This document shows, piece by piece, positions 10 through 21,817 of a DNA stretch of 64,000 nucleotides. Location: contig CALKZT010000034.1 of the NCBI GenBank assembly GCA_938002815.1, positions 30,988 through 94,987 of the forward strand, written 5' to 3'. Under the pieces are notes generated by a model. It ran no database searches and had not been told where the DNA came from. It saw only the letters and a list, made by a program, of their open reading frames with translations. Made by a program: the position numbers and the translations under genes. Origin of the DNA: an uncultured bacterium (GTDB lineage Bacteria; Desulfobacterota; DSM-4660; Desulfatiglandales; CALKZT01). Position 1 is the stretch's first letter; each line of letters starts with the position of its first letter.

Positions 10-276
10 ATGATCGGAAAATATCTTGGGGCACTTCTGCCAACGATATTTGGTTTTTATGGGCTTATTAACCTTTTTGGAGAATACACACACGCAATAG
101 CACTCCAGTATGTTGCACAGATGGCATTGGTGCTCTATCCTCCCTTTGTTGTATTTGCCGTATTTCATCAACGTTATATTCAGAAACAGGCAGGATTATT
201 ATTGAGAAGATTGAAGGCGTCATCATGCCAGATAATGGAACTCGATAAAAGGTTGGTTAGTTTGAATGATCGATAG
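10..276 (+). CDS. hypothetical small membrane protein (88 aa)
   Basis: ORF with an SD-like gaggt just upstream of the ATG. Two hydrophobic segments (LGALLPTIFGFYGLINLF; MALVLYPPFVVFAVF). No family recognised. Confidence 0.35.
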   Translation: MIGKYLGALLPTIFGFYGLINLFGEYTHAIALQYVAQMALVLYPPFVVFAVFHQRYIQKQAGLLLRRLKASSCQIMELDKRLVSLNDR

Positions 277-291
277 AATAAATGAGGAACT

Positions 292-822
292 ATGAAAAGT
301 CATTTGAGTATTGCCAAATTTGTAAAAATATTCTGTTTATCCATGGTGTTCGTTGTTTTATGTGTTCTACTGGAGGGGGTAAACGCCATGGCCGAAACAA
401 AAGAACAGGCAACAGTAGTGGGAGAAGTGGAAGATGTTGTCCTATTTCCCTGGAAGATAAAATTGCCGGCGCGCATCGATACCGGAGCCGGCATGTCCTG
501 TCTTGACGCACGGGACATTCGTATCGAGGGCAATATGGTTGAATTCCGTTTGCCGGAAAAGTATGGCGGAGCACTTCTCCGTTTACCCATGAAAGGCCAG
601 AAGAATGTCAAATCCGCTCAAGGCCCTATGAAAAGAGTCACCGTGGAGATTGAGATATGTATCGGTTCAAAACGATTTCTTACCACGGTAAACCTTACCG
701 ATCGCTCTGGTATGAACTATCCGTTCCTCGTGGGACGCAATCTTCTCGCCCACGGTTTCATTGTTGATGTATCCCGGTCTCATCTCCTGTCTCCAACGTG
801 CCTTACGGTATCATCAGAATGA
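292..822 (+). CDS. secreted retropepsin-like aspartic protease domain protein (family often annotated 'putative ATP-dependent zinc protease', RimB-like)
   Basis: 176 aa. Signal-like N-terminus (IFCLSMVFVVLCVLLEGVNAMA). Aspartic protease signature ARIDTGAGMSCLDA. aggaa SD before the ATG. Confidence 0.7.
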   Translation: MKSHLSIAKFVKIFCLSMVFVVLCVLLEGVNAMAETKEQATVVGEVEDVVLFPWKIKLPARIDTGAGMSCLDARDIRIEGNMVEFRLPEKYGGALLRLPMKGQKNVKSAQGPMKRVTVEIEICIGSKRFLTTVNLTDRSGMNYPFLVGRNLLAHGFIVDVSRSHLLSPTCLTVSSE

Positions 823-2348
823 AAGTGAAACACCCTGCAACCATATTGGCGTTTGTACTCTTTGCGCTGACAATCTCTATCGTTATGTACCGTATCATCT
901 GGCTCAAATATCCTATTCTTCCAACTGTACCAGGTCAGGTATGGCAACTCTCCTTCGAGGCCAGCATACAGCCTGAGGAGCGCGAAATTGAGGCAGCCAT
1001 AGCGCTCCCCACCGAACAAGCCGGGAGAGTTATTGCTGAAGAACGGATTACCTCTGATACACTGAGTTTTAACCTTTTTCAGGAAGGAGCGAACCGTATC
1101 GGGCTCTGGTCGGGAATGTCCGATAAAGAGGCGGCAATCATCACCTATAAAAGCACCCTCCTTTTGAGGCCCAGACGCTTTCCCGCATCCCAGAACCCCA
1201 CCCTATCAACAGACATGCCTGAAATAGGCCGGGAAGAAACGGCATTTATTGAACGTTTAGGCGAAAAATGGAAAACGCTCGATCCACAGCAACGACTCAA
1301 GGAGGTTTCCTCTGTTGCCGGAGGGAGACAAGAAGCAGGCGGCGTGAGTAGAGAAGACATGGAGGCATGGAATAAACTCAAAGACAAGCACGGAGAATCG
1401 GGTGCAATGCTTATTCTCTTAAAGGCAGCTGGTCTTCCCGCGCGGTCTGTTTCAGGTCTTTTGCTCGTAAGGGGAATACAAACATCTCCTACAATCTGGG
1501 TGGAAGCCTGGGATGGACAACAATGGCGCGACTTAGACCCACGCACCGGACAGATCTATGGTGATAAATCAGCGCTCCTTGCGCTCACTACAGCAGGAAC
1601 TCCGATAGTCCATGTAACAAAGGGACACATTCTGGATACCCGCTGGAGCCTTGAGAGACAGATTATGAGCAAATGGCGTCTACATTTCGAGCGTATCAAA
1701 AGGTCGCAGCATATCCTTGACCGATGGTCGTTCTTCTCCATTCCCGAAGAATTCCAGAATTTACTTCGAGTTCTTTTCCTTGTTCCGCTGAGCGCCCTTA
1801 TGATCTGCCTTTTGCGTAACGTTATTGGGTTTCCCACCTTCGGGATATTCATGCCTGTACTCCTTGCCCTTGCGTTCAGAAGCACTGGGCTTATGTATGG
1901 CATAGGTATTTTCGCAAGTCTGGTATTGATAGGGTACACAGCTAGGCGGGGCCTTGACAGGTTTCGTCTTCTCCTTGTGCCCCGGCTCTCAGTACTCCTC
2001 ACGCTTGTTATAGTCTGTTTCGGCCTGTTTACCTTGATCGGCGGGAAACTGAGTCTGCGTGCATTGATGGGCGTTGGGCTTCTTCCCATCGTAATCCTTA
2101 CTATGAGTATCGAGAGGTTCTTCATCCTTATTGAGGAATCCGGCATCGGCGAGGCGCTCAAAACCGCTTTAGGGACGGTCGCCGTTGCGGTAATTACCTT
2201 CTTTGTCATTCAGTGGGAACCGATTCAACTTACCTTCTTTGTCTATCCTGAGCTTCTTTTTGCCGTTGCCGGGGTTCAGGTTCTCCTTGGTCGGTATACA
2301 GGCTACAGGTTGTCTGAAGTGATTCGTTTTAGGGTGCTTACGGGGTAA
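819..2348 (+). CDS. membrane protein: inactive transglutaminase-like extracytoplasmic domain fused to about 7 TM helices
   Basis: N-terminal TM (ATILAFVLFALTISIVMY). Transglutaminase-like core GESGAMLILLKAAGLPARSVSG...TIWVEAWDGQQWRDLDP, with Ser and Ile where the catalytic Cys and His normally sit. C-terminal third is multi-TM. ATG 819 overlaps the upstream stop (ATGA); an alternative GTG start is at 798. Confidence 0.7.
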   Translation: MKVKHPATILAFVLFALTISIVMYRIIWLKYPILPTVPGQVWQLSFEASIQPEEREIEAAIALPTEQAGRVIAEERITSDTLSFNLFQEGANRIGLWSGMSDKEAAIITYKSTLLLRPRRFPASQNPTLSTDMPEIGREETAFIERLGEKWKTLDPQQRLKEVSSVAGGRQEAGGVSREDMEAWNKLKDKHGESGAMLILLKAAGLPARSVSGLLLVRGIQTSPTIWVEAWDGQQWRDLDPRTGQIYGDKSALLALTTAGTPIVHVTKGHILDTRWSLERQIMSKWRLHFERIKRSQHILDRWSFFSIPEEFQNLLRVLFLVPLSALMICLLRNVIGFPTFGIFMPVLLALAFRSTGLMYGIGIFASLVLIGYTARRGLDRFRLLLVPRLSVLLTLVIVCFGLFTLIGGKLSLRALMGVGLLPIVILTMSIERFFILIEESGIGEALKTALGTVAVAVITFFVIQWEPIQLTFFVYPELLFAVAGVQVLLGRYTGYRLSEVIRFRVLTG

Positions 2349-2353
2349 ATTGT

Positions 2354-3304
2354 ATGAAATTCCAGATATTTCAAGGAATGGATGATATAGGTATCCTTGG
2401 CATGAACCGCCGAAATGCCGAATACATCATGCGATATAATGCACGAGCACGTTTTCCCCTTGTGGATAATAAGGTTCTGACCAAAAAGCTTGCACAAAAA
2501 TTCAATGTTCCTACCCCCGAAATCTATTACGTGATCGAGCATCACGGCGATATGGCGGAACTCGATAAAGCCCTCGAAGACCATAAAGAATTCGCCCTTA
2601 AACCCGCCCGTGGTTCAGGTGGGAGCGGGATTATCTTGTTTGTAGATAGGAAAAAAGAAGGATTTGTAAGACAGAGTGGTGCAACGATGTCCAGAGAGGA
2701 GTTCAATTATCATATATCAGGCATATTGTCTGGGATATATTCCCTTGGAGGACAGGAGGACGTAGCAATAGTAGAATCCCTCATCCATCCTGCAGAGCTC
2801 TTTGCGGAGGTAACCTACAGGGGCGTTCCCGACATAAGGATAATCGTTTACCGTGGCTTTCCTGTCATGGCCATGATCCGGCTGCCTACACGAGCATCAG
2901 ACGGTAAAGCGAATATACACGCTGGCGCAATCGGTGCAGGTATTGATATAAAGACAGGTGTAACCCTTACTGCTGTTCATCGCTCAAAGGTAATCACACA
3001 TCATCCTGATACAGGTAACACCATAGTGGGAATAAACATTCCTTACTGGGATAGCATGCTCGTTGTAGCATCAAAGGCATATGAAATGACGGGTCTCGGA
3101 TACATAGGAGTCGATCTGGTGATAGACATTAACAGGGGCCCACTTCTTCTTGAACTTAACGCCCGTCCAGGTCTTCAGATACAGATAGCAAACAACTCAG
3201 GTCTTCTGAAAAGGCTCCGGTCAGTGGATGATGCATTCTCCGACAGCAATTTGGAGCCAGAAGAAAGGGTTATGTGGGTAAAAGAAAGTTTCAAAATAAC
3301 TTGA
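2354..3304 (+). CDS. alpha-L-glutamate ligase-related ATP-grasp protein (RimK family)
   Basis: 316 aa. ATP-grasp-type segments (LKPARGSGGSGI; IGVDLVIDINRGPLLLELNARPGL). N-terminus GILGMNRRNAEYI as I recall for the RimK-related ligase subfamily. 5-nt gap from the upstream gene. Confidence 0.8.
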   Translation: MKFQIFQGMDDIGILGMNRRNAEYIMRYNARARFPLVDNKVLTKKLAQKFNVPTPEIYYVIEHHGDMAELDKALEDHKEFALKPARGSGGSGIILFVDRKKEGFVRQSGATMSREEFNYHISGILSGIYSLGGQEDVAIVESLIHPAELFAEVTYRGVPDIRIIVYRGFPVMAMIRLPTRASDGKANIHAGAIGAGIDIKTGVTLTAVHRSKVITHHPDTGNTIVGINIPYWDSMLVVASKAYEMTGLGYIGVDLVIDINRGPLLLELNARPGLQIQIANNSGLLKRLRSVDDAFSDSNLEPEERVMWVKESFKIT

Positions 3305-3317: not shown

Positions 3318-3542
3318 ATGTGGTGGTTTTATGGTCCCATTCGATGGAATTTTTGGTTTATTCCGCCAATTATGTGGTTTCTGTTCGTATTCATAATAGC
3401 CTTTGTTTTCTATCAGCTACTCAAGAGAAGGTATCCAAAATGGACACAGGCCGAAATAGAGGCGCTGAAGATGGAGATAAAATCCATAAAGGAAGAGATT
3501 GAAGAAATAAAAAGGTTAGGAGGTTCCCATGGCACTCGTTAA
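3318..3542 (+). CDS. small single-TM protein with charged helical tail (74 aa)
   Basis: Strong SD (gaggagg) 8 nt before the ATG. Trp/Phe-rich TM (FWFIPPIMWFLFVFIIAFVFY), then EIEALKMEIKSIKEEIEEIKRL. Overlaps the next gene by 14 nt. Confidence 0.5.
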   Translation: MWWFYGPIRWNFWFIPPIMWFLFVFIIAFVFYQLLKRRYPKWTQAEIEALKMEIKSIKEEIEEIKRLGGSHGTR

Positions 3543-4242
3543 GGCAGAAAAAATCGTAAAGGTTTATAAGATAGGGGAAGTTCTGATAAACTCAATAAAC
3601 GGTGTAAGCTTCGAAATAGAAGAGGCCTCGTTCGTATCCTTTGTAGGGCCATCAGGTAGTGGCAAGACAACCCTATTAAATCTCATTGGTTGCCTCGATA
3701 GTCCCACTGAAGGGAATCTTTTTGTAGCCGGTGAGGATGTAAATGAACTGGACAGAAGACAACGTGCCTTATTCAGGGGTAAGAATATTGGTTTCATATT
3801 CCAGGACTTCAATCTCATACCGGTCCTTACCGTCTATGAGAATGTAGAATACCCCCTGATTATGGTCAAAAATGTTTCCACTAAAGAGAGGGAGGAGAGG
3901 ACAATGAAACTACTCGATGCCGTGGGTATGCTAGAGCAGAAAGATAAATACCCCGATCAAATCTCCGGGGGCCAGAAGCAAAGGGTTGCAGTTGCACGCG
4001 CCCTTGTGACAAACCCGAAACTTGTCCTTGCAGATGAGCCTACTGCTAACCTCGACCATAAGACCGCATACACAGTCATTGAATTGATGAAAAGGATGAA
4101 GGCAGAGTTCAATACCACTTTCATCTTCTCAACCCATGACCCAAAAATTGTGGAAGCGGCAGAGGTTATATATACCTTGGAGGACGGAGAGATTGTGGAC
4201 AGACATGTGAAAGGAGTAAATAGCAATGGCAAATCTCTTTAA
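3529..4242 (+). CDS. ABC transporter ATP-binding protein (MacB/LolD type)
   Basis: Walker A GPSGSGKTT, signature ISGGQKQRVAVARAL, Walker B LVLADEPTANLD. SD aggagg upstream. Confidence 0.9.
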   Translation: MALVKAEKIVKVYKIGEVLINSINGVSFEIEEASFVSFVGPSGSGKTTLLNLIGCLDSPTEGNLFVAGEDVNELDRRQRALFRGKNIGFIFQDFNLIPVLTVYENVEYPLIMVKNVSTKEREERTMKLLDAVGMLEQKDKYPDQISGGQKQRVAVARALVTNPKLVLADEPTANLDHKTAYTVIELMKRMKAEFNTTFIFSTHDPKIVEAAEVIYTLEDGEIVDRHVKGVNSNGKSL

Positions 4243-5464
4243 AATAGCCATACGCAATCTCGCGCGTTACCGGAGGAGGACCATCCTCACTTCGTCGCTC
4301 ATCGCCATCGGTGTCATTTTTGTTCTCCTTTTCGTGGGTGTATCTGGTTCTTTTAAGAACATGATGATAGGCCAGATGACAGACTCCATGCTTGGCCACA
4401 TCCAGGTTCACAGAAAGGGATATATGGCATCCATCGATAACCTCCCCCTCACCATGAACATGAAACCACAGGCGGTGAAAAAACTTGAAAAGGTGTTTCA
4501 GGACATCCCTGATGTAGAATCATATTCGCCGAGGATCAAATTCGGAGGTATGTTGAGCACCTTTACCGAAACGACAAACATCAGGCTAAATGGGGTATAT
4601 CCTGAGAAAGAGATGAAGACACTGCCTCTATTGGCATCAAGGATTTCAAACGGCGGGAAAGAGATTAGAAAGGGAGAAATCATTATCCCTGAACTTCTCT
4701 CCAGGGGAATGAAGATAAACGTAGGTGACATCGTGGTGGTGATCGCCACAAATAAGGACGGCTCGGTAAACGGAAAACAGCTCAAGGTGAGTGGAATAAT
4801 CGAGAGCGTAACAGGTCCAGGCGGGAGAGATGGCTACGTACATATTGAAGATGCCATGGAAATATTAAGAATGGAGGAGATGGAGATCAGCGAGATAGCC
4901 GTAAGGCTCAGAGATTTCGGTAAGCTCCACTCAGTCTATAACACACTTAACACTCTACTTTCAGGGGAGTTGAATAAGCAGGGCAAGCCTGCCTTCGAGG
5001 TCCATACGTGGGAAAGTTTGTCACCTTTTTACAATATCGCAAGGAGCATCGACTTCATGACTATTTTCATCAAGGCCATGCTTACTGCCATTGTCCTCAT
5101 CAGCGTCATGAACGTGATGATCATGGCGGTCTATGAGAGGATCAGAGAGATAGGCACAATAGCCGCAATCGGCACCATGCCAGGGAAAATCCTCTCCATG
5201 TTCGTGACAGAGGGGGTTCTGCTCGGCATCATAGGTGCCATAGCGGGAAATATCATTGGCACCGGTCTTGTGTATCTATTGAAGGTTGTAAAGATAACAT
5301 TCAACTTTGGAAGGCAGTCAGGCCTTGTTTTGTCTCCTTATGTAACGTTATATGACATTGTGATGATATCCTTGATCGTTACTATAGTGGCTGTTATAGG
5401 TAGCTTACAGCCAGCGTTCAAGGCATCTAGGATGGAGCCTATAAAGGCCCTGAGACATGTTTAA
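4226..5464 (+). CDS. ABC transporter permease, FtsX/MacB-LolCE type
   Basis: 412 aa. One N-terminal TM, about 230-aa extracytoplasmic domain, three C-terminal TMs. C-terminal PAFKASRMEPIKALR is typical of the family. 17-nt overlap with the ATPase gene. Confidence 0.85.
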   Translation: MANLFKIAIRNLARYRRRTILTSSLIAIGVIFVLLFVGVSGSFKNMMIGQMTDSMLGHIQVHRKGYMASIDNLPLTMNMKPQAVKKLEKVFQDIPDVESYSPRIKFGGMLSTFTETTNIRLNGVYPEKEMKTLPLLASRISNGGKEIRKGEIIIPELLSRGMKINVGDIVVVIATNKDGSVNGKQLKVSGIIESVTGPGGRDGYVHIEDAMEILRMEEMEISEIAVRLRDFGKLHSVYNTLNTLLSGELNKQGKPAFEVHTWESLSPFYNIARSIDFMTIFIKAMLTAIVLISVMNVMIMAVYERIREIGTIAAIGTMPGKILSMFVTEGVLLGIIGAIAGNIIGTGLVYLLKVVKITFNFGRQSGLVLSPYVTLYDIVMISLIVTIVAVIGSLQPAFKASRMEPIKALRHV

Positions 5465-5489
5465 TTAAGCTGAAAGGAGATATGAAACG

Positions 5490-6218
5490 ATGAAAAAGAT
5501 CTTGATTGTTTTACTTATGATCTTTGTTGCCATTCCTGCTTATGCTATAGATGCCATACAGCTTTTGAAAGAGATTGATAGAAATCTGAATCCTGAATCT
5601 TATGAACTCTATAGAAAACTCATTAATATTGAGCCCGATGGAAGGAAAAAGGAATATGTACTATTCACAGCAAAAAAAGATAAGGATAAAGTGGCAGCAC
5701 TTTTTATCTCTCCTGCAAGCGATAAGGGAAGAAGCACCTTAAGGCTTGGCGACAATATGTGGCTGTATATCCCTAATGTAGGTAAGCCTGTCAGGATTAC
5801 GAGCCTTCAGTCTGTTGTTGGCGGCATTTTTAATAATTCAGACATAATGCAGCTCGACTATTCAGATGAATACGATGTTGAAAAATTTGAAGACTTAAAA
5901 GATCAGTACCTTCTCTATCTGAAGGCAAAAACAAAGGCAGTGGCTTATGATAGAGTGAACCTATGGGCAGATAAAAATACAAAGACACCTGTCAAAATAG
6001 AATGCCAGACAGAGGCAGGGATGCTCATAAAGACATTGTATTTTAAAGAGATAAAGGATTTTGGTGATGGCATAGTAAGGCCCTCTGTCATCGAAACAGA
6101 TAGTCCTCTATATAAGGGCTATAAGTCCATTATAATAATTGCGGGAATCAAAAAGAGGACATTTAGTGACGAAGTCTTTACACTTACTTTTATGCCAAAG
6201 ATGGAAACTTTAAGATAA
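5490..6218 (+). CDS. periplasmic LolA-like outer-membrane lipoprotein-sorting family protein
   Basis: Signal peptide MKKILIVLLMIFVAIPAYA. Core GDNMWLYIPNVGKPVRITSLQSVVGGIFNNSDI resembles the LolA_like family as I recall it. Confidence 0.65.
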   Translation: MKKILIVLLMIFVAIPAYAIDAIQLLKEIDRNLNPESYELYRKLINIEPDGRKKEYVLFTAKKDKDKVAALFISPASDKGRSTLRLGDNMWLYIPNVGKPVRITSLQSVVGGIFNNSDIMQLDYSDEYDVEKFEDLKDQYLLYLKAKTKAVAYDRVNLWADKNTKTPVKIECQTEAGMLIKTLYFKEIKDFGDGIVRPSVIETDSPLYKGYKSIIIIAGIKKRTFSDEVFTLTFMPKMETLR

Positions 6219-6228
6219 AGAGTGTTCA

Positions 6229-7575
6229 ATGGGCAAGGCTCCAAATTTATGGTTCAAAAGATTTTTTTGCATGTGGTTACCTTGTCTTATGCTTATTCTT
6301 ATCTACTATTCCTTATTCGCTATTCATTTGTCATTTTGTGAGGAATACAAATTTGATGTCTCAGAGATTGAAAAAAAACCTTATCACATAGGGGGTTATC
6401 TTGAATTCTATCCGATTCTCTTTGGCCTTGATAAGACATCTGCCCTCTACAAACTCAATTTTTATGATCGGGATAAAGAAAGCACCACAGAACAATACAA
6501 TGGCACACTTCAGCTGGAAGCTAGCCTGGAGAAAGGCATATCAAAGCTTTATGTAAAGACCTATACGAATTATCTCAATTCCTATCAATACGAAACGACC
6601 AAGTTCAAGATCTTCGAAGGTAATCTCTCCGTCAAGCCCTCCTCATCCTGGATATTTGAAACAGGAAAAAAAACCATGAGCTGGGGCAAGGGGTATGCCT
6701 GGAATCCCGCAGCCTTTCTCGACAGAACAAAGGATCCCAACGACCCCGAGCTTTCCCGCGAGGGATTCATCCTTGCATCTATGGATTTTACTAAGAGCTT
6801 CGCAGGGGGCAATTTAAAGACATTTTCATTTACACCTGTGGTTATTCCTGCTTATTCAGGGGTCAATGATGATTTTGGCGAGGTGGGCCATCTGAATTTT
6901 GCATCAAAGTTTTACTTTCTCTTCCATGACACGGACATTGATTTTATGTTACTAACGGGTGGCAGCAGGACAACACGCTATGGGATAGACCTTTCAAAAA
7001 ATATCTTGACGAACCTGGAGGTGCACGGTGAATGCTCCTTGATAAATGGCTACAAGAAAACCAAAGTTGACAGTAGCGGGAACACATCTCAGTCAACCTA
7101 TAATGCCTTCAACTACCTCGTTGGATTAAGGTATCTCTCACAAAAAGATACCACCTTCATCCTTGAATATTACCATAACGGCACAGGCTACACTCCTAAT
7201 GAGATGCGAGACTATTTCTCTTTCATTGAGAAAGCCTATGAGATCTATAATGCAACAGGGAATCCAGGCATGCTGAATAAGGCAACCAATTTCGCCCAGA
7301 ATATCTATGGCCGGGCAAACCCAGGAAAAAATTATCTATATCTCAGAATTCTTCAAAAAGATCCATTTGACATCCTGTACGTAACACCAGCTATCACTAT
7401 GCTTGCAAATTCAGACGATAAAAGCTTTTCTCTCATGCCTGAAATTGTATATACCGGTATTACAAACTTTGAATTCCGTCTGAGAGGAGGACCTATTGTA
7501 GGAAAAAGTGGAAGCGAATATGGCGAAAAACAGAACGATTACAGGATAGACTTCAGGATAAGATATTATTTTTAA
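6229..7575 (+). CDS. putative outer-membrane beta-barrel protein, unknown family (448 aa)
   Basis: Hydrophobic N-terminus. Tyr/Gly/Asn/Thr-rich alternating composition. C-terminal RIDFRIRYYF ends in an aromatic residue, as OMP beta-signals do. No named family recognised. Confidence 0.45.
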   Translation: MGKAPNLWFKRFFCMWLPCLMLILIYYSLFAIHLSFCEEYKFDVSEIEKKPYHIGGYLEFYPILFGLDKTSALYKLNFYDRDKESTTEQYNGTLQLEASLEKGISKLYVKTYTNYLNSYQYETTKFKIFEGNLSVKPSSSWIFETGKKTMSWGKGYAWNPAAFLDRTKDPNDPELSREGFILASMDFTKSFAGGNLKTFSFTPVVIPAYSGVNDDFGEVGHLNFASKFYFLFHDTDIDFMLLTGGSRTTRYGIDLSKNILTNLEVHGECSLINGYKKTKVDSSGNTSQSTYNAFNYLVGLRYLSQKDTTFILEYYHNGTGYTPNEMRDYFSFIEKAYEIYNATGNPGMLNKATNFAQNIYGRANPGKNYLYLRILQKDPFDILYVTPAITMLANSDDKSFSLMPEIVYTGITNFEFRLRGGPIVGKSGSEYGEKQNDYRIDFRIRYYF

Positions 7576-7979
7576 TGAAAGCAATGATGAGAGAGGCAGG
7601 TTGAAAATCGTTTTGTTGCAGGTATTGACAGAAGGGGCCAGACAGTTCGTTAATGTAGCGGCCAATGGCATTCAGAGCGACCTCATTGGGGATGATGTGT
7701 TCATAATAATTGCGTTGCCAAAAGGGGTGGGCCGGGGGTGCGGGGCAATTTGTCAATGTGTTTGGTAACAGCGGATTTGAATTGGCCGATGATGGCGCCG
7801 ATGGATTGCGGCGCGGGGCCGCGCGGTGTTGTAGGGGCGACCCGGCAGGTCGCCCCTACCCCGACATCGCCCATAATCCAAATAATCCCGTGGATGTGAT
7901 TGGGCATCACCACGAATTCATCATCCCGCAATTGCACATACGCGACCTCGCCGAACAAATGGGCGCGGTCGTGGGTGCA
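7553..7979 (-). pseudogene. decayed RAYT / IS200-like (HUH Y1) transposase gene, frameshifted and internally shortened
   Basis: HUH motif region DEFVVMPNHIHGII and GAIIGQFKSAVTKHI lie in one frame. The C-terminal signature FWQRNYYEHII lies in another frame (7553-7756). The frame break is near the G/C run at about 7731-7747. The segment normally between LFGEV and the HUH motif is missing. Confidence 0.6.
7831..7859. repeat. perfect 12-bp-stem palindrome, REP-like (gtaggggcgacc cggca ggtcgcccctac)
   Basis: Read directly. 7831-7842 is the reverse complement of 7848-7859. Lies inside the RAYT remnant. Confidence 0.9.
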
Positions 7980-8128
7980 CAGGGATCCGAAGAGATCGCC
8001 CAGGGCACGGCCATAGGCCTCCTCTGCCTGGATCCGCCGATCCAGGGATCCCAGGATGTGGGCAATTTTCCGTTTCGCCCAATGACAAGCAGGCGCGCCG
8101 CTTCTTCCTTGGTGATGACGGCAAGGAT

Positions 8129-8152
8129 GGGCACGGCATGCCGTTCCCCTAC
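8129..8152. repeat. imperfect palindrome, REP-like (gggcacggcatgccgttcccctac)
   Basis: Read directly. 10-bp arms around the gcatgc centre with one mismatch (8132/8145). Shares the cccctac flank with the 7831-7859 unit. Confidence 0.8.
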
Positions 8153-8309
8153 AACCTCGACCATCCGACTTGGGTGGAAGGAACATTAAGATCCCGGGCA
8201 TCCATCAGATAAGCTGGTTTTTCCAAAATTGCCCCCGGATCCCGATCCCGCTCACTTTTTATCAGTATTTGAGATCGTGGCAAGGCCAAGAGGCCCCCCT
8301 ATTCCCCTC

Positions 8310-8420: not shown

Positions 8421-8449
8421 TTGACAGCCCTATACTTTCGGGGTATTAT
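8421..8449 (+). promoter_or_regulatory. sigma70-type promoter for tRNA-Arg
   Basis: TTGACA (8421-8426), 17-nt spacer, TATTAT (8444-8449). The -10 ends 12 nt before the mature tRNA 5' end. Confidence 0.6.
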
Positions 8450-8461
8450 TTTTCTATCTTT

Positions 8462-8535
8462 GCCCCCGTAGCTCAGGTGGATAGAGCACCAGATTCCTAA
8501 TCTGGGTGTCGTGCGTTCGAGTCGCGCCGGGGGCA
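8462..8535 (+). tRNA. tRNA-Arg (anticodon CCT)
   Basis: 74 nt cloverleaf folded by hand. Acceptor GCCCCCG/CGGGGGC; D arm GCTC-AGGTGGATA-GAGC; anticodon arm CCAGA-TTCCTAA-TCTGG; V loop GTGTC; T arm GTGCG-TTCGAGT-CGCGC; discriminator A. CCA is not encoded. Confidence 0.85.
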
Positions 8536-8548
8536 TTCCCGCTTTGGA

Positions 8549-10364: not shown

Positions 10365-12788
10365 TCACTCCTCTTCTATCTTGGCAGCACCCACAACCCT
10401 CTCCCCGTTTTGGAGCTCTATGAGCTTTACACCCTGAGTTACCCTTCCAGTTCTGGGTACATTAGACACCTCAAACCTGATAAGCTTTCCTTCCTCGGTT
10501 ATCAGAACCATGTGATCCGTCTCAGATACCTGGTAGGAATAGACTACCCCCCCATTCTTCTCGGTAAGCCTCATAAGGGTGATCCCCTTGCCACCCCTCA
10601 TCTGGGCTCTAAACTCAGAGACAGGGGTCCTCTTACCATAGCCCCGCTCTGTTACCGTAAGTATATCACCCTCGGGTTTTAGGACCTCCATACTCACCAC
10701 CTCATCATCCTCATCAAGATCTATCCCTATTACCCCTATGGAGGCCCTTCCCACCAGCCTCACCTCACTCTCAGAAAACCTTATGCACCTGCCTTTCTTT
10801 GTGCTCAAGAAGACCTCCTTGGACCCATCAGAGAGGACCACACCCACAAGCTCATCCCCTTCCCGCATCCTGAGGGCTATGATCCCGCTACTCTTCACAT
10901 TGCTGTATTCCTCAAGTCTGGTCCTCTTCACTATCCCCTTCTTGGTGGCCATAATCACCACCAAGCCATCCTCAAAGCTCCTTAGGTTCAGGGTAGCCTT
11001 TATCTTTTCCTGGGGAGAGATATCCAGTATGTTTGCTATGTGTTTACCCTGGGCTGAGCGCGCCCCTTCGGGGAGCTCATGTACCTTCTTCAGATAGACC
11101 TTTCCAAGGCTTGTATAGAAGAGAAGATGGTCGTGGGAGTTTGCAACCACCATTATCTTTACAAAATCGTCTTCCCTTGTCTTCGCCCCTAAAACCCCTT
11201 TCCCTCCCCTCCTCTGGGCCCTGTATTGGCTCAGAGGGGTCCTCTTGGTATAACCCAGGTTACTGATGGTGACCACCATCTCCTCTTCCTGGATGAGGTC
11301 CTCCTCCTCCATGGGGTCTTCTGCATCGAGGATATCTGTCTTCCTTTGATCCCCAAATTGCTCCCTGATCCAGATGGTCTCCTCTTTAATGATTCCGTCT
11401 ACCTTTTTGGGATCAGAGAGTATCTCTTCGAAACCCTCTATGTCCTTTAGAAGCCTTCCGTATTCCTCTTCCAACCTTTCCCTTTCAAGGCCTGTAAGCC
11501 TCTGGAGCCTCATCTCCAGGATGGCCTGGGCCTGTCTCTCGGTGATGCCCAAAAGCTCCATGAGACCCTGTTTGGCCGTCTTTGTATCCTCCGAGGACCT
11601 AATGAGCTGGATCACCTCGTCTAACATAAAAAGGGCCTTTCTGAGGCCTTCTAAGATGTGTGCCCTTTCTTTTGCCTTTTTGAGTTCGAATTCGGTCTTT
11701 CTATGTACAATCTCTCTTCTGTGGTCTATGAAGGAGAGCAAGAGGGTCTTGAGGTCCAGAAGTGTGGGCCTTCCTCCTACCAGTGCCAGCATATTTATCC
11801 CAAAACTGATCTCCATCTGGGTATATTTGAAGATCCTGTTTATGAGTACAGAGGGTACTGCATCCTTCCTCAGCTCCAGCACAATTCGGATACCCTCCCT
11901 GTTGGATTCATCCCTTATCTCTTGGACTCCGTCCAGCTTCTTGTCCCTTATGAGCTCCCCGATCTTTTCTATGAGTTTTGCCTTGTTTACCTGATAAGGG
12001 ATCTCCTCAATGGTGATATATTGCCTCCCACCCTTCTTTTCTTCAAACCTGGCCTTTCCCCTGATCCTGATGATACCCCTGCCTGTCCTGTACGCCTCAG
12101 TGATCCCCTCCTTCCCCACTATTACACCACTTGTGGGGAGATCAGGTCCTGGGATAACCCTTAAGAGATCATCCACCTCAAGGGTAGGATCCTCAAGGAG
12201 GGCTATTATCCCGTCACATACCTCTTTTAGATTGTGGGGCGGGATACTCGTGGACATGCCCACGGCAATACCTGAAGAGCCATTTATAAGCAGATTGGGC
12301 ACAGGAGATGGGAGCACAACCGGTTCCATAAGGGAGCCATCGTAGTTGGGACTAAAGTCCACGGTCTCTTTTTCGATATCCCTCAGGAGTTCTTCGGCCA
12401 GCCTGCTCATCCTTACCTCTGTGTATCTCATGGCTGCCGGGGCATCTCCGTCCACAGAACCAAAATTTCCCTGTCCGTCCACCAGGGGATACCTCATATT
12501 GAAGTCTTGGGCCATTCTCACTATGGCATCATATACCGCCATGTCGCCATGGGGGTGGTATTTACCTATCACGTCACCTACTACCCTTGCGGACTTCTTG
12601 TAGGGCTTGTCGTGGAAGTTTTTCAATTCGTACATACTAAAAAGGATTCTTCTGTGCACAGGCTTCAGTCCATCCCGCACATCTGGTAAGGCCCTCCCCA
12701 CTATGACGCTCATGGAGTATTCCAGGTATGAGCGCTTCATCTCCTCTTCTATGGACACAACATCCACCACTACGTTTGACCCATCCAT
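10365..12788 (-). CDS. gyrA: DNA gyrase subunit A
   Basis: 807 aa. [29 protein letters not shown], catalytic-Tyr region AAMRYTE. C-terminal beta-pinwheel repeats. Confidence 0.97.
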
Positions 12789-12811
12789 ATGTTTGGCTCC
12801 TTTATGAAAAA

Positions 12812-15187
12812 TCAGATATCAAGGCGGCTGACTTCAAGGGCGTGCTTTAGGATGAATTCCTTTCTGGGACTTACCTCATCTCCCATCAACATGCTAAATA
12901 CCTCATCGGATTCCACCAAATCCTCGATTTTCACCCTTAGCAAAGACCTCCTCGCAGGATCCATGGTGGTCTCCCATAGCTGCTCAGGATTCATCTCTCC
13001 CAAACCTTTGTATCTTTGAATGTTTAAATGGGATTTGGCACTTAAGACCAACTCGTCTAAAATTAGTGATAGGTCTTTTGCGGGTTTCCAATCTGGGGAA
13101 CCTTCCAGTCTGTATTCTTTATCGGTTAGAATTGAAAGATTCTTCCATGACCTACACAATTGGTTGAAATCAAAAGAGGAGACCAGATTCCAATCTACCA
13201 GAAGAGGAGACCTTCCATTATTGCTCCTCACAATAGTAAACCTAAAATAACCTGTGTCTTCGTCAAAGGCTATCTCCCTGATCTGTGCACCTTCCTGAGA
13301 GACCTTTTTTGAAAGGTCTCTGATAAAGGACTCTTCCTTTAGGAGGCCTCTGTCCACAAGCCCGTTTTTCAGAAGAATGTGTATGATACCCTTGTCGTAT
13401 CCATATTTCCTTAAACTACTTAAGGACCTCTCAAACCTTTGAAGCTCCCTTATCATAGATGCCAATTCTTCACCTTGATACTTACCCATCCCCTTGATGT
13501 TTAGGACCGCTTCCTTAGATATCTTCTCTAAAAGATACTCACTAAAGGCCAGCTCGTCTTTGATGTAAAATTCCCTTTTCCCATCCACTATCCTGTAGAG
13601 GGGTGGCTGGGCCACATAGAGATGCCCCCTCTCTATTATTTCCCTCATCTCCCTGAAGAAAAAGGTCAAAAGGAGTGTCCTTATGTGGGCACCGTCCACA
13701 TCGGCATCTGTCATTATGATGATCTTATTATATCTCAAAGACGATATGTCGAAGTCCTTTTCGCCTATTCCTGTTCCCAAGGCAGCTATCATAGTCCTTA
13801 TCTCGTCGCTACTGATCACCTTGTCAAACCTTGCCTTCTCCACGTTCAGGATCTTCCCTTTCAGGGGCAAGACCGCCTGAAACCGTCTATCCCTTGCCTG
13901 TTTGGCAGAGCCTCCCGCAGAATCCCCTTCCACTATGAATAGCTCCCTTACCTTGGGATCCTTCTCTTGGCAGTCGGCAAGCTTGCTGGGAATAGAAAAG
14001 TCAGAGACCCCTGCCTTCTTCCTCGCCAATTCCTTTGCCTTGCGGGCGGCCTCCCTTGCCCTGGCAGCCTCCACTGCCTTCTGTATTATGGGTCTCACCA
14101 ACTGGGGATTCTCTTCAAACGCCCTGGAAAGACCCTCGTTGGTGACCGCCTCCACTAGGCCCTTTATCTCGCTGTTTCCAAGTTTTGTCTTGGTCTGACC
14201 CTCAAATTGGGGATTTGGCAGTTTTACACTTATGACGGCAACCAATCCCTCTCTCACATCCTCACCGCTCAACTTTTCCTTAAATGACTTTGTAAGTGGA
14301 GAAGACTGAAGGACTGAATTTATGCTCCTTGTCAGGCCGGCTTTGAAGCCTATTAAATGGGTTCCACCCTCGATTGTGTTTATATTATTGGCATAACTTA
14401 AGATATTTTCATTATATGAATTATTGTACTGAAGGGCAATTTCGATCAAGATATTATTTTTCTCTGACTTAAAATATATTGGCTCTGGATGAAGGACCTC
14501 TTTTGTTCTGTTTAAATACTTTACAAATGCTACGATCCCACCCTCATATTGGTACTCTTTTGAAATCCCAGAATTTTCATCCAGGAATTTTATTTTTATC
14601 CCACTCGTGAGAAATGCCAGTTCTCTAAGTCTTCTTATTAGATAATTCGGATCCCATAATATTGTCTCGAATATCTCTGAATCAGGTTTAAATCTGACAG
14701 TCGTACCCGTCAGATGAGTATCTCCTCTAACTTCTAAACCACAGGTGGGTACACCCCTTTCGTAGCGTTGATAATAGATATGGCCGTCCCTTTTGACATA
14801 CACCTCTAAGAACTCAGAGAGGGCATTTACTACCGATACTCCAACACCATGGAGTCCACCCGACACCTTGTAGATCTTATTATCAAACTTTCCACCGGCA
14901 TGGAGTTTGGTCATCACCACCTGGACTGCAGGCACCTTCTCGGTCTCGTGTATGTCCACAGGAATACCCCTGCCATCGTCAGCTACCTCCACAGACCCGT
15001 CCTCTAAGAGCCTTACGGAGATGGTTGTGCAATAACCTGCAAGGGCCTCGTCTATACTGTTATCCACCACCTCAAAGACCAGGTGGTGCAGGCCCTCGAA
15101 TCCGGTATTGCCTATATACATGGCAGGTCTTTTTCTTACTGCCTCGAGACCTTCGAGGACCTTAATGTCAGAGGCTTTATATGTCAC
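12812..15187 (-). CDS. gyrB: DNA gyrase subunit B (long form with Toprim insertion)
   Basis: [19 protein letters not shown], Toprim [20 protein letters not shown] and [13 protein letters not shown] prefer the GTG start at 15187, which forms a GTGA overlap with the dnaN stop. The longest ORF starts at 15223. Confidence 0.95.
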
Positions 15188-16308
15188 TGTTGATATTCCT
15201 CCACCAGGGGCATTAATACACACAGATAGTCTGGATCTGCCTTTCCTGTTATTATACAGGCAGAAACCCCCTCTGTAAACGAGATCTCCATCTCATCGGA
15301 TTCCATCACCTCTGCCACGGATAAAAGCTCCTTGGGGTTCATGTGGACCACAAAATCATCACCTTCATAAGATACCTTCAAAACCTCCTCTGCCTTACCG
15401 GCATCTGTTACGGCCTTAAGGGTAAGCCTACCCCCGTCCTCAGCTCTAAAATACATTTCTGTATCTTTTAGATAGCCTTCAAGGAATGTGGACATCCTTT
15501 TGAGGGATTCCCCAAAGGGGCTCTTTTTCAAGATCGCCTTGTGCTCTATCTTCACCGTATAAAGTGGTGAGTAATCTATGAATTCTTCCTGTCTTATAGT
15601 GATATAACAGAGGCACTCATCAGATGGCTCAATATATAGCCCGTCCCCTTTAAGACCTATCTTCCAAGGACCTTTATCATCTTCCTGTTTTAGAATCTCG
15701 TTTATACTGGATTTTGGGATCATTATAAGATGATCAGGTAGGATACGATTAAACTCTGGTAATGAGAAATCACGTATACTCAAACTATGATTGTCAGAAG
15801 ACATAAATCTGACCTTGTCTCCATCATCCATTTTTTGTATGAACACACCTGAGAGGTGTGGATTCATGTCAGGTTCTGCAACGGTAATCGAGACAGTTTT
15901 TATTGCTTTTTTAAAGATTTTGCCATCAATTAGCACTTTATTGGATGGGTCTAAATATTCTATTTTAGGAAAATCTTCAAAATCTACCAAATAAAAATTG
16001 TAGTTAGTAACCTTGTCATCGATAATGATTTTGTTATCTTCGACATTTATACTGATAATTTCTCCTTTACTTTCTTTTATGATGTCATATAACTTTCTTC
16101 CAGGCAAGGCAGTACCACCTGGTTTGTCTATGGTACCTTCAATAGAAATATCATAATAGACTTGAAGGTTGGTAACTTTGATGTTTATCTTATCTTTTGC
16201 CTCTATGATTACATAGCCCAAAAGAGGTCTTATACCCCTTTTGTCGAGAACAGACTGGACCTTGGAAAGAGAGGCCAGAAGTTTTGATCTCGGTAAAAGT
16301 AATCTCAT
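15184..16308 (-). CDS. dnaN: DNA polymerase III beta sliding clamp
   Basis: About 374 aa from the ATG at 16308, with GGAGG upstream. N-terminus [37 protein letters not shown] fits the clamp N-terminal pattern. Position immediately upstream of gyrB. Confidence 0.88.
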
Positions 16309-16353
16309 TTGTTCTTTACCTCCTAGGAGAATATTTATACTTATAGCGTAGAT

Positions 16354-16404
16354 ATGTTCAAAAGTCAATCAAGTGTTGAATTTCATTGTCTAAATTTTGA
16401 ACAT
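16354..16404. promoter_or_regulatory. 10-bp perfect inverted repeat ATGTTCAAAA / TTTTGAACAT in the dnaN-cooC divergent spacer
   Basis: Read directly: 16354-16363 and 16395-16404, 31-nt spacer containing a related TGTTGAA (16374-16380). AT-rich context. Function unknown. Confidence 0.4.
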
Positions 16405-16497
16405 CTTCTTTCTGAAATCCTCATATCCATGAGAGCATCCCTTGACTGCGTTCGAAAAAGTTCTAAATCTTAGAGGAGAATAGGAGAGGAGGAGAAA

Positions 16498-17238
16498 ATG
16501 GCCTTTTCCATAGCTATGGCAGGTAAAGGCGGGACCGGAAAGACCACTGTTGCAGGCCTACTCATAAGATACCTGGTCGAGACAGGGAGAAAGCCGGTGC
16601 TTGCTGTGGATGCGGACGCAAATAGTAACCTAAACGAGGTCTTAGGTGTGGAAGTCTTTGAGACCCTTGGGAATGCCAGGGAAGAGATGAAAAAACACGT
16701 CTCCGTGGGAATGACAAAGGATGTATTTATGGAGATGAAATTACAGCAGGCAGTGGTAGAAGGGGATGGGTTCGATCTAATAGTGATGGGGCGGCCTGAG
16801 GGTCCTGGTTGCTATTGCGCTGCGAATACCCTCCTATCTGAGTATCTCGGTAAGCTCATAGGTAATTACCCCTATATAGTGATAGATAATGAGGCAGGGA
16901 TGGAGCATATGAGCAGGCTTACCACCAATAATGTGGATGTCCTGTTGGTGGTATCAGATCCAAGCAGGAGAGGGCTTGAGGCAGCCAAGAGGATATGGGA
17001 GCTGGCCAAGGAGCTCAAGTTGGACGTTGGAAAGGGATTCCTTTTGGTAAACAGGGTGAAGGATGGGGGAGGGCTTGGGGATGTGAGCAACCTTACAGGT
17101 CTTGAACTCTTAGGAGTGCTCCATGAAGACAACACCATACAAGAATACGATCTCAAGGGGATGCCCACTTCAAAGGTCCCCCCTGAATCGGCAATTATCA
17201 AGGAGTCTTATAGGGTCTTTGAAGGGATCTTCAGCTGA
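16498..17238 (+). CDS. CooC/MinD-ParA-family P-loop ATPase (nickel-insertion accessory-like)
   Basis: Deviant Walker A AMAGKGGTGKTT. CXC motif GPGCYCAAN as in CooC-type maturases. DNEAGMEH switch region. 246 aa. Confidence 0.75.
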   Translation: MAFSIAMAGKGGTGKTTVAGLLIRYLVETGRKPVLAVDADANSNLNEVLGVEVFETLGNAREEMKKHVSVGMTKDVFMEMKLQQAVVEGDGFDLIVMGRPEGPGCYCAANTLLSEYLGKLIGNYPYIVIDNEAGMEHMSRLTTNNVDVLLVVSDPSRRGLEAAKRIWELAKELKLDVGKGFLLVNRVKDGGGLGDVSNLTGLELLGVLHEDNTIQEYDLKGMPTSKVPPESAIIKESYRVFEGIFS

Positions 17239-17299
17239 GAGAGACCTCAGTTTGGGCCATGTAAGATGTTGCCTTTTTTAGGGGTTTCTTTCATTTGCC

Positions 17300-17329
17300 T
17301 TGACACCAAAGATGAGCTTCTCGTATAGA
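17300..17329 (+). promoter_or_regulatory. sigma70-type promoter candidate for the rpmH operon
   Basis: TTGACA (17300-17305), 18-nt spacer, TATAGA (17324-17329), about 35 nt upstream of the rpmH ATG. Confidence 0.5.
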
Positions 17330-17363
17330 AAGAGATAGATCAATGAGATGAGGTAAAGGGGAG

Positions 17364-17498
17364 ATGAAGAGGACTTTTCAACCAAGCAGGATTAAGAGGG
17401 CACGTACACATGGGTTCAGGGCCCGAATGAAGACAAGAGACGGGATGAAGGTGCTAAACAGGCGGAGGGCAAAGGGAAGGAAGAGGATTGCCGTCTAA
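17364..17498 (+). CDS. rpmH: 50S ribosomal protein L34
   Basis: Not in the ORF track (44 aa). Hand translation [44 protein letters not shown] is the classic L34 sequence. SD aagggga upstream. Confidence 0.95.
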
Positions 17499-17856
17499 TG
17501 GTACCCACCTCTCCAAAGGGTTTGGATTACCGAAGGAGAATAGACTTAGGGGACAAGAGGAATTCAGACGGGTCAGGTTCCAGGGGAGAAAGATCAGCTC
17601 GATCAATTTTTCAGTCTACCTTCTCAGGAATAATTTTGAGCACTTTAGGTTTGGGATCAGTATCAAAAAGGCTATTGCAACCGCTCCCAGGAGAAATAGG
17701 GTGAAGAGGCTGATAAGGGAGTTTGTGCGTTTGAATAAGTCTTTGTTGCCAAAGGGGTACGATTTCTTGATCCTCCCCAAAAGGGATTTGGCAGATCTAA
17801 AATACCAAGAAGTGGAACGAGAGCTGGGAGAATTGCTTATTGGCAAGACTGGTTAA
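17488..17856 (+). CDS. rnpA: ribonuclease P protein component
   Basis: [13 protein letters not shown] and [13 protein letters not shown] motifs. Follows rpmH. The only in-frame start is TTG at 17488, which overlaps rpmH by 11 nt. Confidence 0.85.
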
Positions 17857-18067
17857 GTGGGAAGACCTCCCTATAGGGTTAATTAGATTTTATCAATATT
17901 TGATCTCACCCATGCTTCCTAAGACGTGCAGGTTTTATCCCACATGTTCCTCCTATGCAGTGGAGGCCTTAAAGAGGTATGGGTTGGGAAAAGGTCTCTA
18001 TCTATCAGTAAAAAGGCTTTTGAAATGCCATCCATTTCACCCTGGTGGCTATGACCCCCTGACCTAG
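17840..18067 (+). CDS. yidD: membrane protein insertion efficiency factor YidD
   Basis: [27 protein letters not shown] signature. TTG start overlapping the rnpA end. Confidence 0.85.
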
Positions 18068-18106
18068 TCCCAGAAGACTTTTAATTAGGAGGCTTAATTT
18101 AGCTAA

Positions 18107-19726: not shown

Positions 19727-19740
19727 GGTGGAGGAAGGCA

Positions 19741-20430
19741 ATGCAGTTCTACGAATTCGAAGGAAAAAACGTGGAAGAGGCAATTATGAGCGCTACTAAG
19801 ACCCTGAACGTGAGCAGAGATGAGCTGAATTATGAGGTGTTGGAGCCTGGTTCTGCGGGAATCTTTGGGATTGTCGGGGGAAGGAAGGCCAAAGTGAAGG
19901 TGTGGTTGAAGAGGGACGAAGAGGAAGAGAGAAAGAAGGAACTGCCGTTGAAGATGGCCAAGCTCGTGACCGAAACCATTCTGAACATGGTCTCTAAGGG
20001 AAAGGTGGAGGTGGAGGCGGAGATGACTGATGGTTCCATCTCCTTGAATGTGACAGGGGAAGATGCCGGTGTTCTTATAGGGAAGAACGGACAGACCTTA
20101 GATGCCTTACAGTACATCTTGAACCGCATTGTAAACAGGCAGCTGGAAAAGAAGGTATTAGTGGTAGTGGACATAGAGAACTACCGTAAGAGGAGAAGAG
20201 AGAGCCTGGTGGAAATGGCCAAGAAGATGGCAGAAAAGGCAAAGAGGCTAAGGCGGCCTGTGAGCACAAATCCCATGAGCGCCAGGGACAGGAGAATAAT
20301 CCACCTTGCCCTAAAGGATGACAGGCAGTTGGAGACCAAGAGCAAAGGTGAAGGACTCTTGAAAAAGGTGGTGATATATCCAAAGCTTAGGAGTCAGAAC
20401 CGCAGACAAGAGAGGGCAAGACAGCAGTAA
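19741..20430 (+). CDS. jag: Jag/KhpB-like RNA-binding protein (KH + R3H)
   Basis: Start taken at MQFYEFEGKNVEEAI (ATG 19741). KH GxxG in VLIGKNGQTLDALQYI. R3H in MSARDRRIIHLAL. Confidence 0.8.
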   Translation: MQFYEFEGKNVEEAIMSATKTLNVSRDELNYEVLEPGSAGIFGIVGGRKAKVKVWLKRDEEEERKKELPLKMAKLVTETILNMVSKGKVEVEAEMTDGSISLNVTGEDAGVLIGKNGQTLDALQYILNRIVNRQLEKKVLVVVDIENYRKRRRESLVEMAKKMAEKAKRLRRPVSTNPMSARDRRIIHLALKDDRQLETKSKGEGLLKKVVIYPKLRSQNRRQERARQQ

Positions 20431-20433
20431 GAT

Positions 20434-21804: not shown

Positions 21805-21817
21805 GCCCATAAGCCTT

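Follow-up and report, generated by a model that had tools for sequence, protein, structure and literature searches.

Do the co-oriented genes at positions 3318 to 7575 of the DNA studied here build a dedicated route across the cell envelope, and what would such a route carry? The DNA (the window) is a stretch of 64,000 nucleotides from an uncultured Desulfobacterota bacterium (assembly GCA_938002815.1, contig CALKZT010000034.1, positions 30,988 to 94,987 of the forward strand). The routes between the two diderm membranes that are well characterised are Lol, Lpt, Mla and Bam; the operon in the window looks like a further inter-membrane route, modular and widespread. Four of its genes, encoding an ATP-binding cassette (ABC) ATPase, an ABC permease, a LolA-like carrier and an outer-membrane β-barrel, behave as one unit. 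We read this quartet as a trans-envelope export machine that follows Lol-like logic with other parts and whose cargo is probably not protein, and put the probability of this reading at roughly 0.6.

A listing of open reading frames (ORFs) returned five on the forward strand between 3318 and 7575, with coordinates identical to those first reported. The first (3318–3542) encodes a 74-residue single-pass membrane protein. It is followed by the genes for a 237-residue ABC ATPase of the LolD/MacB/DevA/FtsE type (3529–4242), a 412-residue MacB_PCD/FtsX permease (4226–5464) and a 242-residue secreted LolA-like carrier of family PF17131 (5490–6218), all three assigned by profile matches, and by the gene for the 448-residue outer-membrane β-barrel with the C-terminus RIRYYF (6229–7575), assigned from an AlphaFold model. 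The two gene overlaps noted earlier from the sequence, 3529–3542 (14 nt, first gene and ATPase gene) and 4226–4242 (17 nt, ATPase and permease genes), are both real. Shine–Dalgarno sequences had been claimed for all five genes. Four are clear: GGAGG lies 8 nt 5′ of the first start, the ATPase gene has AGGAGG, and AAGGAG precedes both the permease and the carrier genes. The fifth claim does not hold to the same degree, the barrel gene having only a weak AGAG. Chance is not a concern, since the ORFs are long, the family matches strong and the homologues number in the thousands.

A scan for barrel loci, covering one genome per GTDB species, gave at least 594 confirmed matching stretches in the species-representative genomes; our locus comparisons rest on the best 80 of these, plus a few added loci. 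The best 80 belong to Syntrophorhabdaceae, Syntrophia, Desulfobacteria, Nitrospirota, Nitrospinota, Planctomycetota, Omnitrophota and others. Sixty loci have 3.6 kb or more of upstream DNA; at 59 of them, the set ATPase–permease–PF17131–barrel is complete, co-oriented and in the same order, and the carrier gene lies immediately 5′ of the barrel gene in the same proportion. At the exception (L021, 3782–6314) the three partners are missing upstream, and the barrel gene is directly preceded by an unrelated 388-residue P-loop NTPase-like ORF, identified by eye. Also identified by eye, further upstream at L021, are a porin-like gene and ABC genes resembling those for zinc uptake. Three barrel relatives at ~25–30% identity are likewise in a quartet operon, one of them adjoining a Por_Secre_tail-domain protein.

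More distant copies were reached through the LolA-like protein and hhalign; tblastn with the barrel against plasmids gave no match. Searching annotated plasmids with the LolA-like protein located the same gene set in Vibrio sp. HDW18, Burkholderia gladioli, Aliiroseovarius crassostreae and an IncK2/Z plasmid of Escherichia coli. Each of these sets comprises an ABC ATPase, an FtsX permease and a PF17131 protein, then a 'hypothetical protein' of 400–480 residues, which hhalign identifies as a remote homologue of the barrel (probability 96–98%, E 1.8e-9 to 3e-14). Given these distant plasmid and cross-phylum copies, the architecture is either old or has been transferred widely among diderm phyla. 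What the four parts are, and their near-obligate co-occurrence in fixed order across phyla, is established, as is, at the level of prediction, the fold of the barrel. We note that Haematospirillum jordaniae has a degraded copy of the quartet.

The sequence-only reading had proposed a five-gene envelope-spanning module. Four of the genes are conserved as proposed, but the first is not: a counterpart of the 74-residue protein was found at 0 of 87 related loci. In the closest relatives (L005 and L006) the upstream synteny is kept, yet an 80-bp gap takes the place of the gene. In a protein database of 5.8e9 clusters, the protein has, besides itself, a single relative, 71% identical, encoded at the same position between ATP-grasp and ATPase genes and with the same 14-nt overlap. 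The reading frame is kept between the two despite two indels, and the ratio of non-synonymous to synonymous substitution rates (dN/dS) is 0.24; with the strong ribosome-binding site, this marks the ORF as a genuine clade-restricted gene outside the conserved module. Its 0/87 count and lone relative database-wide led us to reject it as a module component. The earlier description of the protein was accurate, hydropathy placing one transmembrane segment at residues 10–37, with a charged helical C-terminal tail. The KRR that follows the segment suggests that this tail is cytoplasmic. The window quartet is thus an ordinary member of its family with a local 74-residue addition.

The impression that the last two genes are richer in AT than the ABC genes was also correct. 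Their G+C contents are 0.366 (carrier) and 0.404 (barrel) against 0.440 and 0.459 for the ABC genes, and at third codon positions (GC3) the values are 0.36 and 0.44 against 0.47 and 0.57. Over 65 related loci the mean difference in GC3 between carrier and permease genes is 0.001; there being no skew among these relatives, the AT-richness is a trait of this genome and not of the module. Separate acquisition of the two genes was rejected on the same grounds, and because the quartet travels together. We note that, in a comparison with L020, L022 and L005, the window carrier (5490–6218, GC3 0.36) has its best protein matches (79%) in Nitrospirota loci, and that the best matches of the permease and the barrel are at other loci, L005 and L007 (87% and 80%). 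This mismatch could reflect allelic replacement by recombination in the operon, or noise in a slowly evolving protein.

The ATPase matches ABC_tran (PF00005, 9.4e-35) in Pfam and retains intact Walker A (GPSGSGKT), signature (ISGGQKQR) and Walker B (LVLADEPT) motifs; orthologues at 66–80% identity occupy the same position in related loci. Its top NCBIfam model is LolD (TIGR02211), which it matches with 229.2 bits, below the cut-off of 307.75. PRK11629 (190.6, cut-off 360), DevA (215 bits) and the MacB nucleotide-binding domain (NBD; 195 bits) are also below cut-off. PF00005 and these best models agree with the LolD/MacB type first assigned. The permease exceeds the Pfam cut-offs for both MacB_PCD (50.4 bits, 4.4e-13) and FtsX (53.2 bits, 3.7e-14). 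By hydropathy, a first transmembrane helix is followed by a periplasmic domain of ~225 residues and then by helices two to four, so that the FtsX-type permease with a large periplasmic domain described earlier is found as such. The four-helix FtsX domain, the large periplasmic domain between the first two helices and the overlapping upstream NBD gene are those of a type VII (MacB/FtsX-type) ABC system. Within NCBIfam, scores against the FtsX models are far lower than against those of Lol and MacB; the score against lolCE (TIGR02212) is 108 bits, with a cut-off of 362.45.

The permease has its top PDB matches in LolF (1.4e-15) and LolE (4.4e-14), then YtrF and MacB. A carrier-docking hairpin has been described for LolC. 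In the quartet permease, patches of the periplasmic domain are strongly conserved across phyla; one of them, ATNkDGSVNGkQ (174–185), aligns with a central stretch of the LolF periplasmic domain. As only one permease gene is present, the permease is presumably a homodimer. The single permease had been presented as a departure from canonical Lol, a point that falls: homodimeric LolDF systems with solved structures are known (PMC13575116), and a single permease gene is thus not unusual, LolF itself heading the matches.

The assignment of the secreted LolA-like protein held in the profile search. PF17131 (LolA_like, also listed as TP_0789-like) matches with 138.5 bits (2.6e-40, cut-off 30) over profile positions 2–183 of 184. 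Nothing else in Pfam matches at E ≤ 1, so that there is no match to LolA (PF03548), and the NCBIfam scores are 17.5 for LolA1_Flavo (cut-off 100) and 26.8 for LolA3_fam (cut-off 83). The carrier has a signal peptide ending AYA/I and is not a lipoprotein. Its identity across phyla is 70%. PDB matches are 3buu (4.5e-22) and 3bk5 (1.2e-7), both solved homologues from the LolA superfamily, and 4z48 (5e-6), the last of which has been named a DUF1329-type structure of the LolA superfamily (PMC6394551). The module exposes a likely annotation trap here: among the RefSeq plasmid records examined, the annotation calls the PF17131 gene an 'outer membrane lipoprotein-sorting protein' and adds electronically inferred Gene Ontology terms for lipoprotein transport.

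One rival reading makes the quartet a second, specialised Lol pathway. Some triacylated lipoproteins would be drawn out of the membrane by the ABC transporter and ferried by the PF17131 protein, and the barrel would either act as insertase in place of LolB or turn them out to the cell surface. LolF and LolE as the best structural matches of the permease, LolD as the best-scoring model of the ATPase and the membership of the carrier in the LolA superfamily would all suit this, and lipoprotein cargo with an insertase barrel is among the options proposed for Borrelia BBJ23–29 (PMC13078400). We nevertheless consider it quite unlikely. Every Lol equivalog scores under its cut-off (LolD, 229 against 307.75; LolCE, 108 against 362; LolA1_Flavo, 17.5 against 100), no conserved lipoprotein gene lies in or beside the operon, and the accessory periplasmic proteins, judged from their N-termini, appear to have alanine-ending signal peptides of the signal peptidase I type and no lipoboxes. 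The proteobacterial copies, moreover, accompany acyl-carrier and ketosynthase genes.

For the outer-membrane component, the 448-residue protein, no Pfam or NCBIfam model matches at E ≤ 1. In the database of 5.8 billion clusters it has 3085 homologues, of which 0 have a Pfam domain and every named one is 'hypothetical'; an exhaustive profile search gave 1244 clusters (50% identity) at E ≤ 1e-3 and 253 at E ≤ 1e-30. With an alignment of 76 diverse sequences, AlphaFold predicted a barrel of 18 antiparallel strands, with a predicted local distance difference test score (pLDDT) of 93.5 and a predicted template-modelling score (pTM) of 0.86. This run superseded one with 39 close homologues, for which the pLDDT was only 73. 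The predicted barrel agrees with the sequence-only reading, in which the RIRYYF C-terminus, with its aromatic end YYF, had pointed to an outer-membrane barrel. Neither of the two results named beforehand as refuting that reading, a soluble or non-barrel prediction and a failed LolA-like assignment, came about. The signal peptide, the even number of antiparallel strands and the aromatic C-terminal residue are those of outer-membrane barrels in general. At the N-terminus, the signal peptide (a hydrophobic segment) is accompanied by a conserved acidic peptide, EEYKFD..EIEKKP. The start at 6229 gives the signal peptide its positively charged n-region; the database copy of the protein, at 428 residues, starts 20 codons further downstream.

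Two features stand out in the model. The loop at 149–179, which lies between the fifth and sixth strands, lacks regular secondary structure and holds the most invariant motif of the family, GKKT..WGKGYAWNP...KDP.DP. A helical hairpin at 323–360, between strands 13 and 14, contains the only long helices after the signal peptide. The most conserved residues of the barrel are W152, G153, G155, Y156, N159, P160, K168, D236, N258, E264, H266, E268, R301 and E313. Beyond the loop, the near-invariant residues (D236, N258, E264, H266, E268, R301, E313, N394 and D397) are polar or charged. E264, H266 and E268 alternate along one strand as an invariant E-x-H-x-E motif and so would face the same side, presumably the lumen.

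Comparison of the model with the PDB by Foldseek gave 299 matches at E ≤ 0.001, and all 50 of those listed are outer-membrane barrels or engineered variants. The best are chitoporin, OccD2, AlgE and general porins, with template-modelling scores of 0.45–0.54 at 9–11% identity. Matches of this kind to a predicted fold are generic to barrels and do not indicate family membership; membership in the AlgE, OprD or porin families was rejected for this reason. Sequence-profile searches of the PDB with the barrel, as a single sequence and as two profiles, gave nothing usable. A Pfam scan of the 76 relatives found sub-threshold Porin_O_P matches in seven (best 1.6e-4). This kinship was also rejected, hhalign giving a probability of 1% against a protein taken as Porin_O_P-like, itself not profile-tested. 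DUF1302 matches 0 of the 76 family members at E ≤ 0.1, and the barrel has no match to OEP (the TolC family). It therefore belongs to a family without a Pfam or NCBIfam name, as had been suspected when the barrel could not be placed.

The ABC transporter, the LolA-like protein and the barrel, each now confirmed, together span the inner membrane, the periplasm and the outer membrane, as first claimed. In the mechanism we favour, the homodimeric type VII ABC transporter would spend cytoplasmic ATP to pull a hydrophobic or amphiphilic molecule out of the inner membrane's outer leaflet, by mechanotransmission as in LolCDE/LolDF and YbbAP. The periplasmic domain of the permease would then pass the cargo to the soluble PF17131 carrier, which would shield it across the periplasm. 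The carrier would finally dock on the 18-strand barrel, and the cargo would be inserted into the outer membrane or passed through it. The direction of transport, the physical hand-over and the nature of the cargo are what we infer here. Export of a hydrophobic cargo is suggested by the nearest solved permeases, LolF and LolE, which are lipoprotein extractors, and by the LolA-superfamily carrier. The conserved permease patches and the conservation of the carrier would fit a specific protein–protein hand-over. Neither a MacA-type adaptor nor a TolC-type duct is encoded among the ORFs of 3318–7575, which makes a shuttle more likely than a continuous duct. A tripartite pump of the MacAB–TolC type was rejected, this region having no adaptor ORF and no OEP duct.

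The favoured cargo would be a specialised lipid, a lipid-like metabolite or a hydrophobic envelope or stress compound. A non-protein, lipidic cargo is favoured by the biosynthetic context of the proteobacterial copies and by the precedents of ApeL/M/N, AmeABCD and Borrelia considered below. On the E. coli plasmid NZ_CP060058.1, the quartet is part of a co-oriented cluster (11878–23074) with the order short-chain dehydrogenase/reductase (SDR), acyl carrier protein (ACP), ketosynthase-like protein, PfkB kinase, several hypotheticals, ATPase, permease, PF17131 protein, barrel homologue and crotonase. From its gene content this looks like a cluster that makes a lipid or polyketide and has export genes of its own. 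Of 5426 complete E. coli genomes, 2 contain it; the plasmid is mobilisable and of the IncK2/Z type. The Haematospirillum, Aliiroseovarius and Burkholderia copies, too, are flanked by genes for a crotonase, a ketosynthase-like protein or a fatty acyl-AMP ligase. Since some carriers can be cultured and one copy belongs to a small ACP cluster on a mobilisable plasmid of E. coli, direct tests of cargo and mechanism alike are possible.

Several points weigh against this reading. Biosynthetic genes adjoin the quartet neither in the window nor in the 80 closest loci. Recurrent neighbours in those loci are instead periplasmic proteins related to stress or metals, which would point to a different or broader role. 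The polar and charged conserved residues of the barrel may be better explained by a channel specific for a polar moiety than by a plain insertase for lipids. The literature searched yielded no description of the operon, although its coverage is incomplete and one could have been missed.

The neighbours bear most directly on another explanation, an inducible exporter for envelope stress or metal(loid) detoxification, which would clear toxic hydrophobic or metal-containing species (the latter being metal–ligand or metal–sulfur complexes) from the inner membrane or periplasm and expel them through the barrel. The commonest upstream neighbours are Metal_resist/LTXXQ proteins (ZraP/CpxP/Spy-type), which account for 16 of 104 ORFs at the first two positions, at 15 loci and always co-oriented. 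ChrA-type transporters occur at ~11 loci, 3′ of the operon or between the carrier and barrel genes. MamS_MamX, ArsR, cation diffusion facilitator (CDF) and thioredoxin/DsbD neighbours are found at some loci, and histidine kinases and response regulators adjoin many copies. A NifX-like domain (PF02579) with a signal peptide is encoded within the operon at 18 of 84 loci. At 12 of these it is secreted as a protein in its own right, its gene lying between those of permease and carrier, and at six Planctomycetota/Aegiribacteria loci (L044, L041, L054, L060, L063 and L068) it appears to be fused to the N-terminus of the carrier. The fusion is Pfam-confirmed in L044 only (4943–5998; 351 residues with signal peptide, PF02579 and then PF17131); in the other five it is indicated by an identical 410-nt gap pattern together with a NifX-like tblastn match inside the operon. 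No account of a NifX-like domain in the periplasm that is linked to a lipid-carrier fold was found in the literature. The conserved polar Glu, His and Asp residues of the barrel would also suit a metal-containing cargo.

We regard this detoxification role as rather unlikely all the same. The associations cover ~15–25% of loci, as raw counts without a genomic background, and the window has no such neighbours, the NifX-like, Metal_resist and ChrA accessory genes included. The LolA-type cavities of characterised Lol carriers bind acyl chains (PMC9457489), and we know of no metal-binding example.

NifX-like proteins are a family that binds the iron–molybdenum (FeMo) cofactor. The NifX-like domain (18/84 loci, apparently fused in six), the ZraP/CpxP-type, ChrA, CDF and ArsR neighbours and the E-x-H-x-E strand motif lead to a narrower idea, that in anaerobes the machine exports metal–sulfur or other metal-containing hydrophobic species, or delivers them to the outer membrane. 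We hold this to be a long shot. If true, inorganic or organometallic cargo would have a way across the envelope that was not known before, built on a Lol-like chassis.

The direction of transport could also be reversed, with a hydrophobic substrate taken up by the barrel and brought inward by the carrier as in Mla-like retrograde transport, or the ABC complex could be a mechanotransmitter that transports nothing and activates a periplasmic partner, as FtsEX does with EnvC. The barrel fold matches include the uptake channels chitoporin and OccD2, DUF1329 genes occur in catabolic clusters, and the type VII ABC proteins include the non-transporting FtsEX (PMC7668044). But no type VII ABC importer figures among the characterised systems in the abstract of PMC12646458, and the operon has neither a conserved hydrolase nor another conserved effector. 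The carrier–barrel pair would have no role in an FtsEX-like scheme, and the FtsX models score far below those of Lol and MacB. Both variants are thus highly improbable, and outward transport through the quartet remains our preferred reading.

The surroundings of the operon differ from locus to locus. The neighbourhood 3′ of the barrel gene varies among related loci, which places the operon boundary at this gene. In the window, a GC-rich stretch on the reverse strand (~7553–8201; 0.56–0.61 against 0.47 window-wide) overlaps the last 23 nt of the barrel gene. It contains two ORF fragments in different frames with weak, sub-threshold matches to successive parts of NF047646, the model for the REP-associated tyrosine transposase (RAYT), and looks like a decayed RAYT pseudogene. 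Just past it lies a tRNA-Arg (CCT) gene (8461–8536, forward strand), preceded at 8421–8449 by a near-consensus promoter-like site (TTGACA, 17-nt spacer, TATTAT). Directly 5′ of the operon, a three-gene set (292–3304, forward strand) encodes a Zn_protease/RimB-like protein (PF05618), an inactive-transglutaminase protein fused to seven transmembrane helices (PF14400/PF14402) and an ATPgrasp_ST ligase (PF14397). L005 and L006, the closest relatives, have this trio 5′ of their ABC operon as well; the other loci do not. The first ORF of the window (10–276, forward strand) resembles the C-terminal part of a ~272-residue protein with several transmembrane segments and no Pfam match (L025, 2034–2852), by visible similarity of the two translations. 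Cluster members of its product are encoded directly 5′ of the ATPase gene in four other loci, and the trio appears to have been inserted between this ORF and the operon.

How, then, does the quartet compare with known systems? It shares with Lol (LolCDE or LolDF, LolA, LolB) a type VII ABC extractor, a separate LolD-like ATPase, a soluble carrier of the LolA superfamily and the logic of extraction, shuttle and outer-membrane delivery. It differs in scoring below all Lol equivalog thresholds and in a cargo that is probably not a lipoprotein. No lipobox protein that might serve as a LolB-type acceptor is encoded in the operon. The departures from Lol are PF17131 in place of LolA (PF03548) and the 18-strand barrel in place of the lipoprotein LolB. 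Of the departures first listed, the barrel instead of LolB thus stands, and the single permease, for which LolDF is a precedent, does not. MacAB–TolC has the same MacB_PCD and FtsX permease fold and a mechanotransmission-type ATPase, but the quartet lacks the MacA adaptor and TolC duct, encodes its ATPase as a separate polypeptide and includes a soluble carrier. With the 18-strand channels (chitoporin/OprD-Occ and AlgE) the barrel shares strand number and overall shape; in contrast to them it is without Pfam membership, is only 9–11% identical and has its own WGKGYAWNP loop and helical hairpin.

Closer in concept are sets with a dedicated LolA-like protein. ApeL (LolA-like), ApeM (resistance–nodulation–division, RND) and ApeN (LolB-like) belong to the aryl-polyene/flexirubin set and have been proposed to place a specialised, ACP-derived lipid in the outer membrane (PMC8253772). 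Their LolA-like carrier is encoded inside a biosynthetic cluster, as is the quartet on the E. coli plasmid, but the pump is of the RND/MMPL type and not an ABC transporter, and a LolB-like partner takes the place of the barrel. In Castellaniella defragrans, AmeABCD comprises a DUF1302 barrel, a DUF1329 protein, a BNR protein and an RND pump, and sets of this type are genetically linked to tolerance of apolar monoterpenes and to export of an envelope component (PMC6394551; bioRxiv 10.1101/072470). There, too, an inner-membrane pump, a periplasmic protein of the LolA superfamily and a dedicated barrel are encoded together. The pump, however, is RND (HAE3) and the carrier DUF1329, to whose structure 4z48 the quartet carrier is only a distant match; 0 of 76 quartet barrel relatives match DUF1302, and the quartet has no BNR protein. 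Borrelia BBJ23–BBJ29 combines a homodimeric MacB-like ABC transporter, a LolA-like protein and a barrel, for which modelling proposes that a ligand of non-polar character is exported (PMC13078400). This is the same combination of parts as in the quartet, but with an Omp85-type barrel domain and TPR proteins and in Borrelia only, whereas the quartet has an 18-strand porin-like fold and is spread over many phyla. By analogy, a further pump–carrier–partner set may be RS06000–RS06015 of Porphyromonas gingivalis, consecutive locus tags for a regulator of the TetR type, an MMPL transporter, an 'outer membrane lipoprotein-sorting protein' and one hypothetical product; these are the four most under-expressed genes in excess hemin, that is, induced by hemin limitation (PMC10470040). 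Linking a pump of the inner membrane to a LolA-like carrier and a partner in the outer membrane is thus a known concept; what is new, and widespread, in the quartet is the combination of a type VII ABC transporter, PF17131 and this barrel superfamily.

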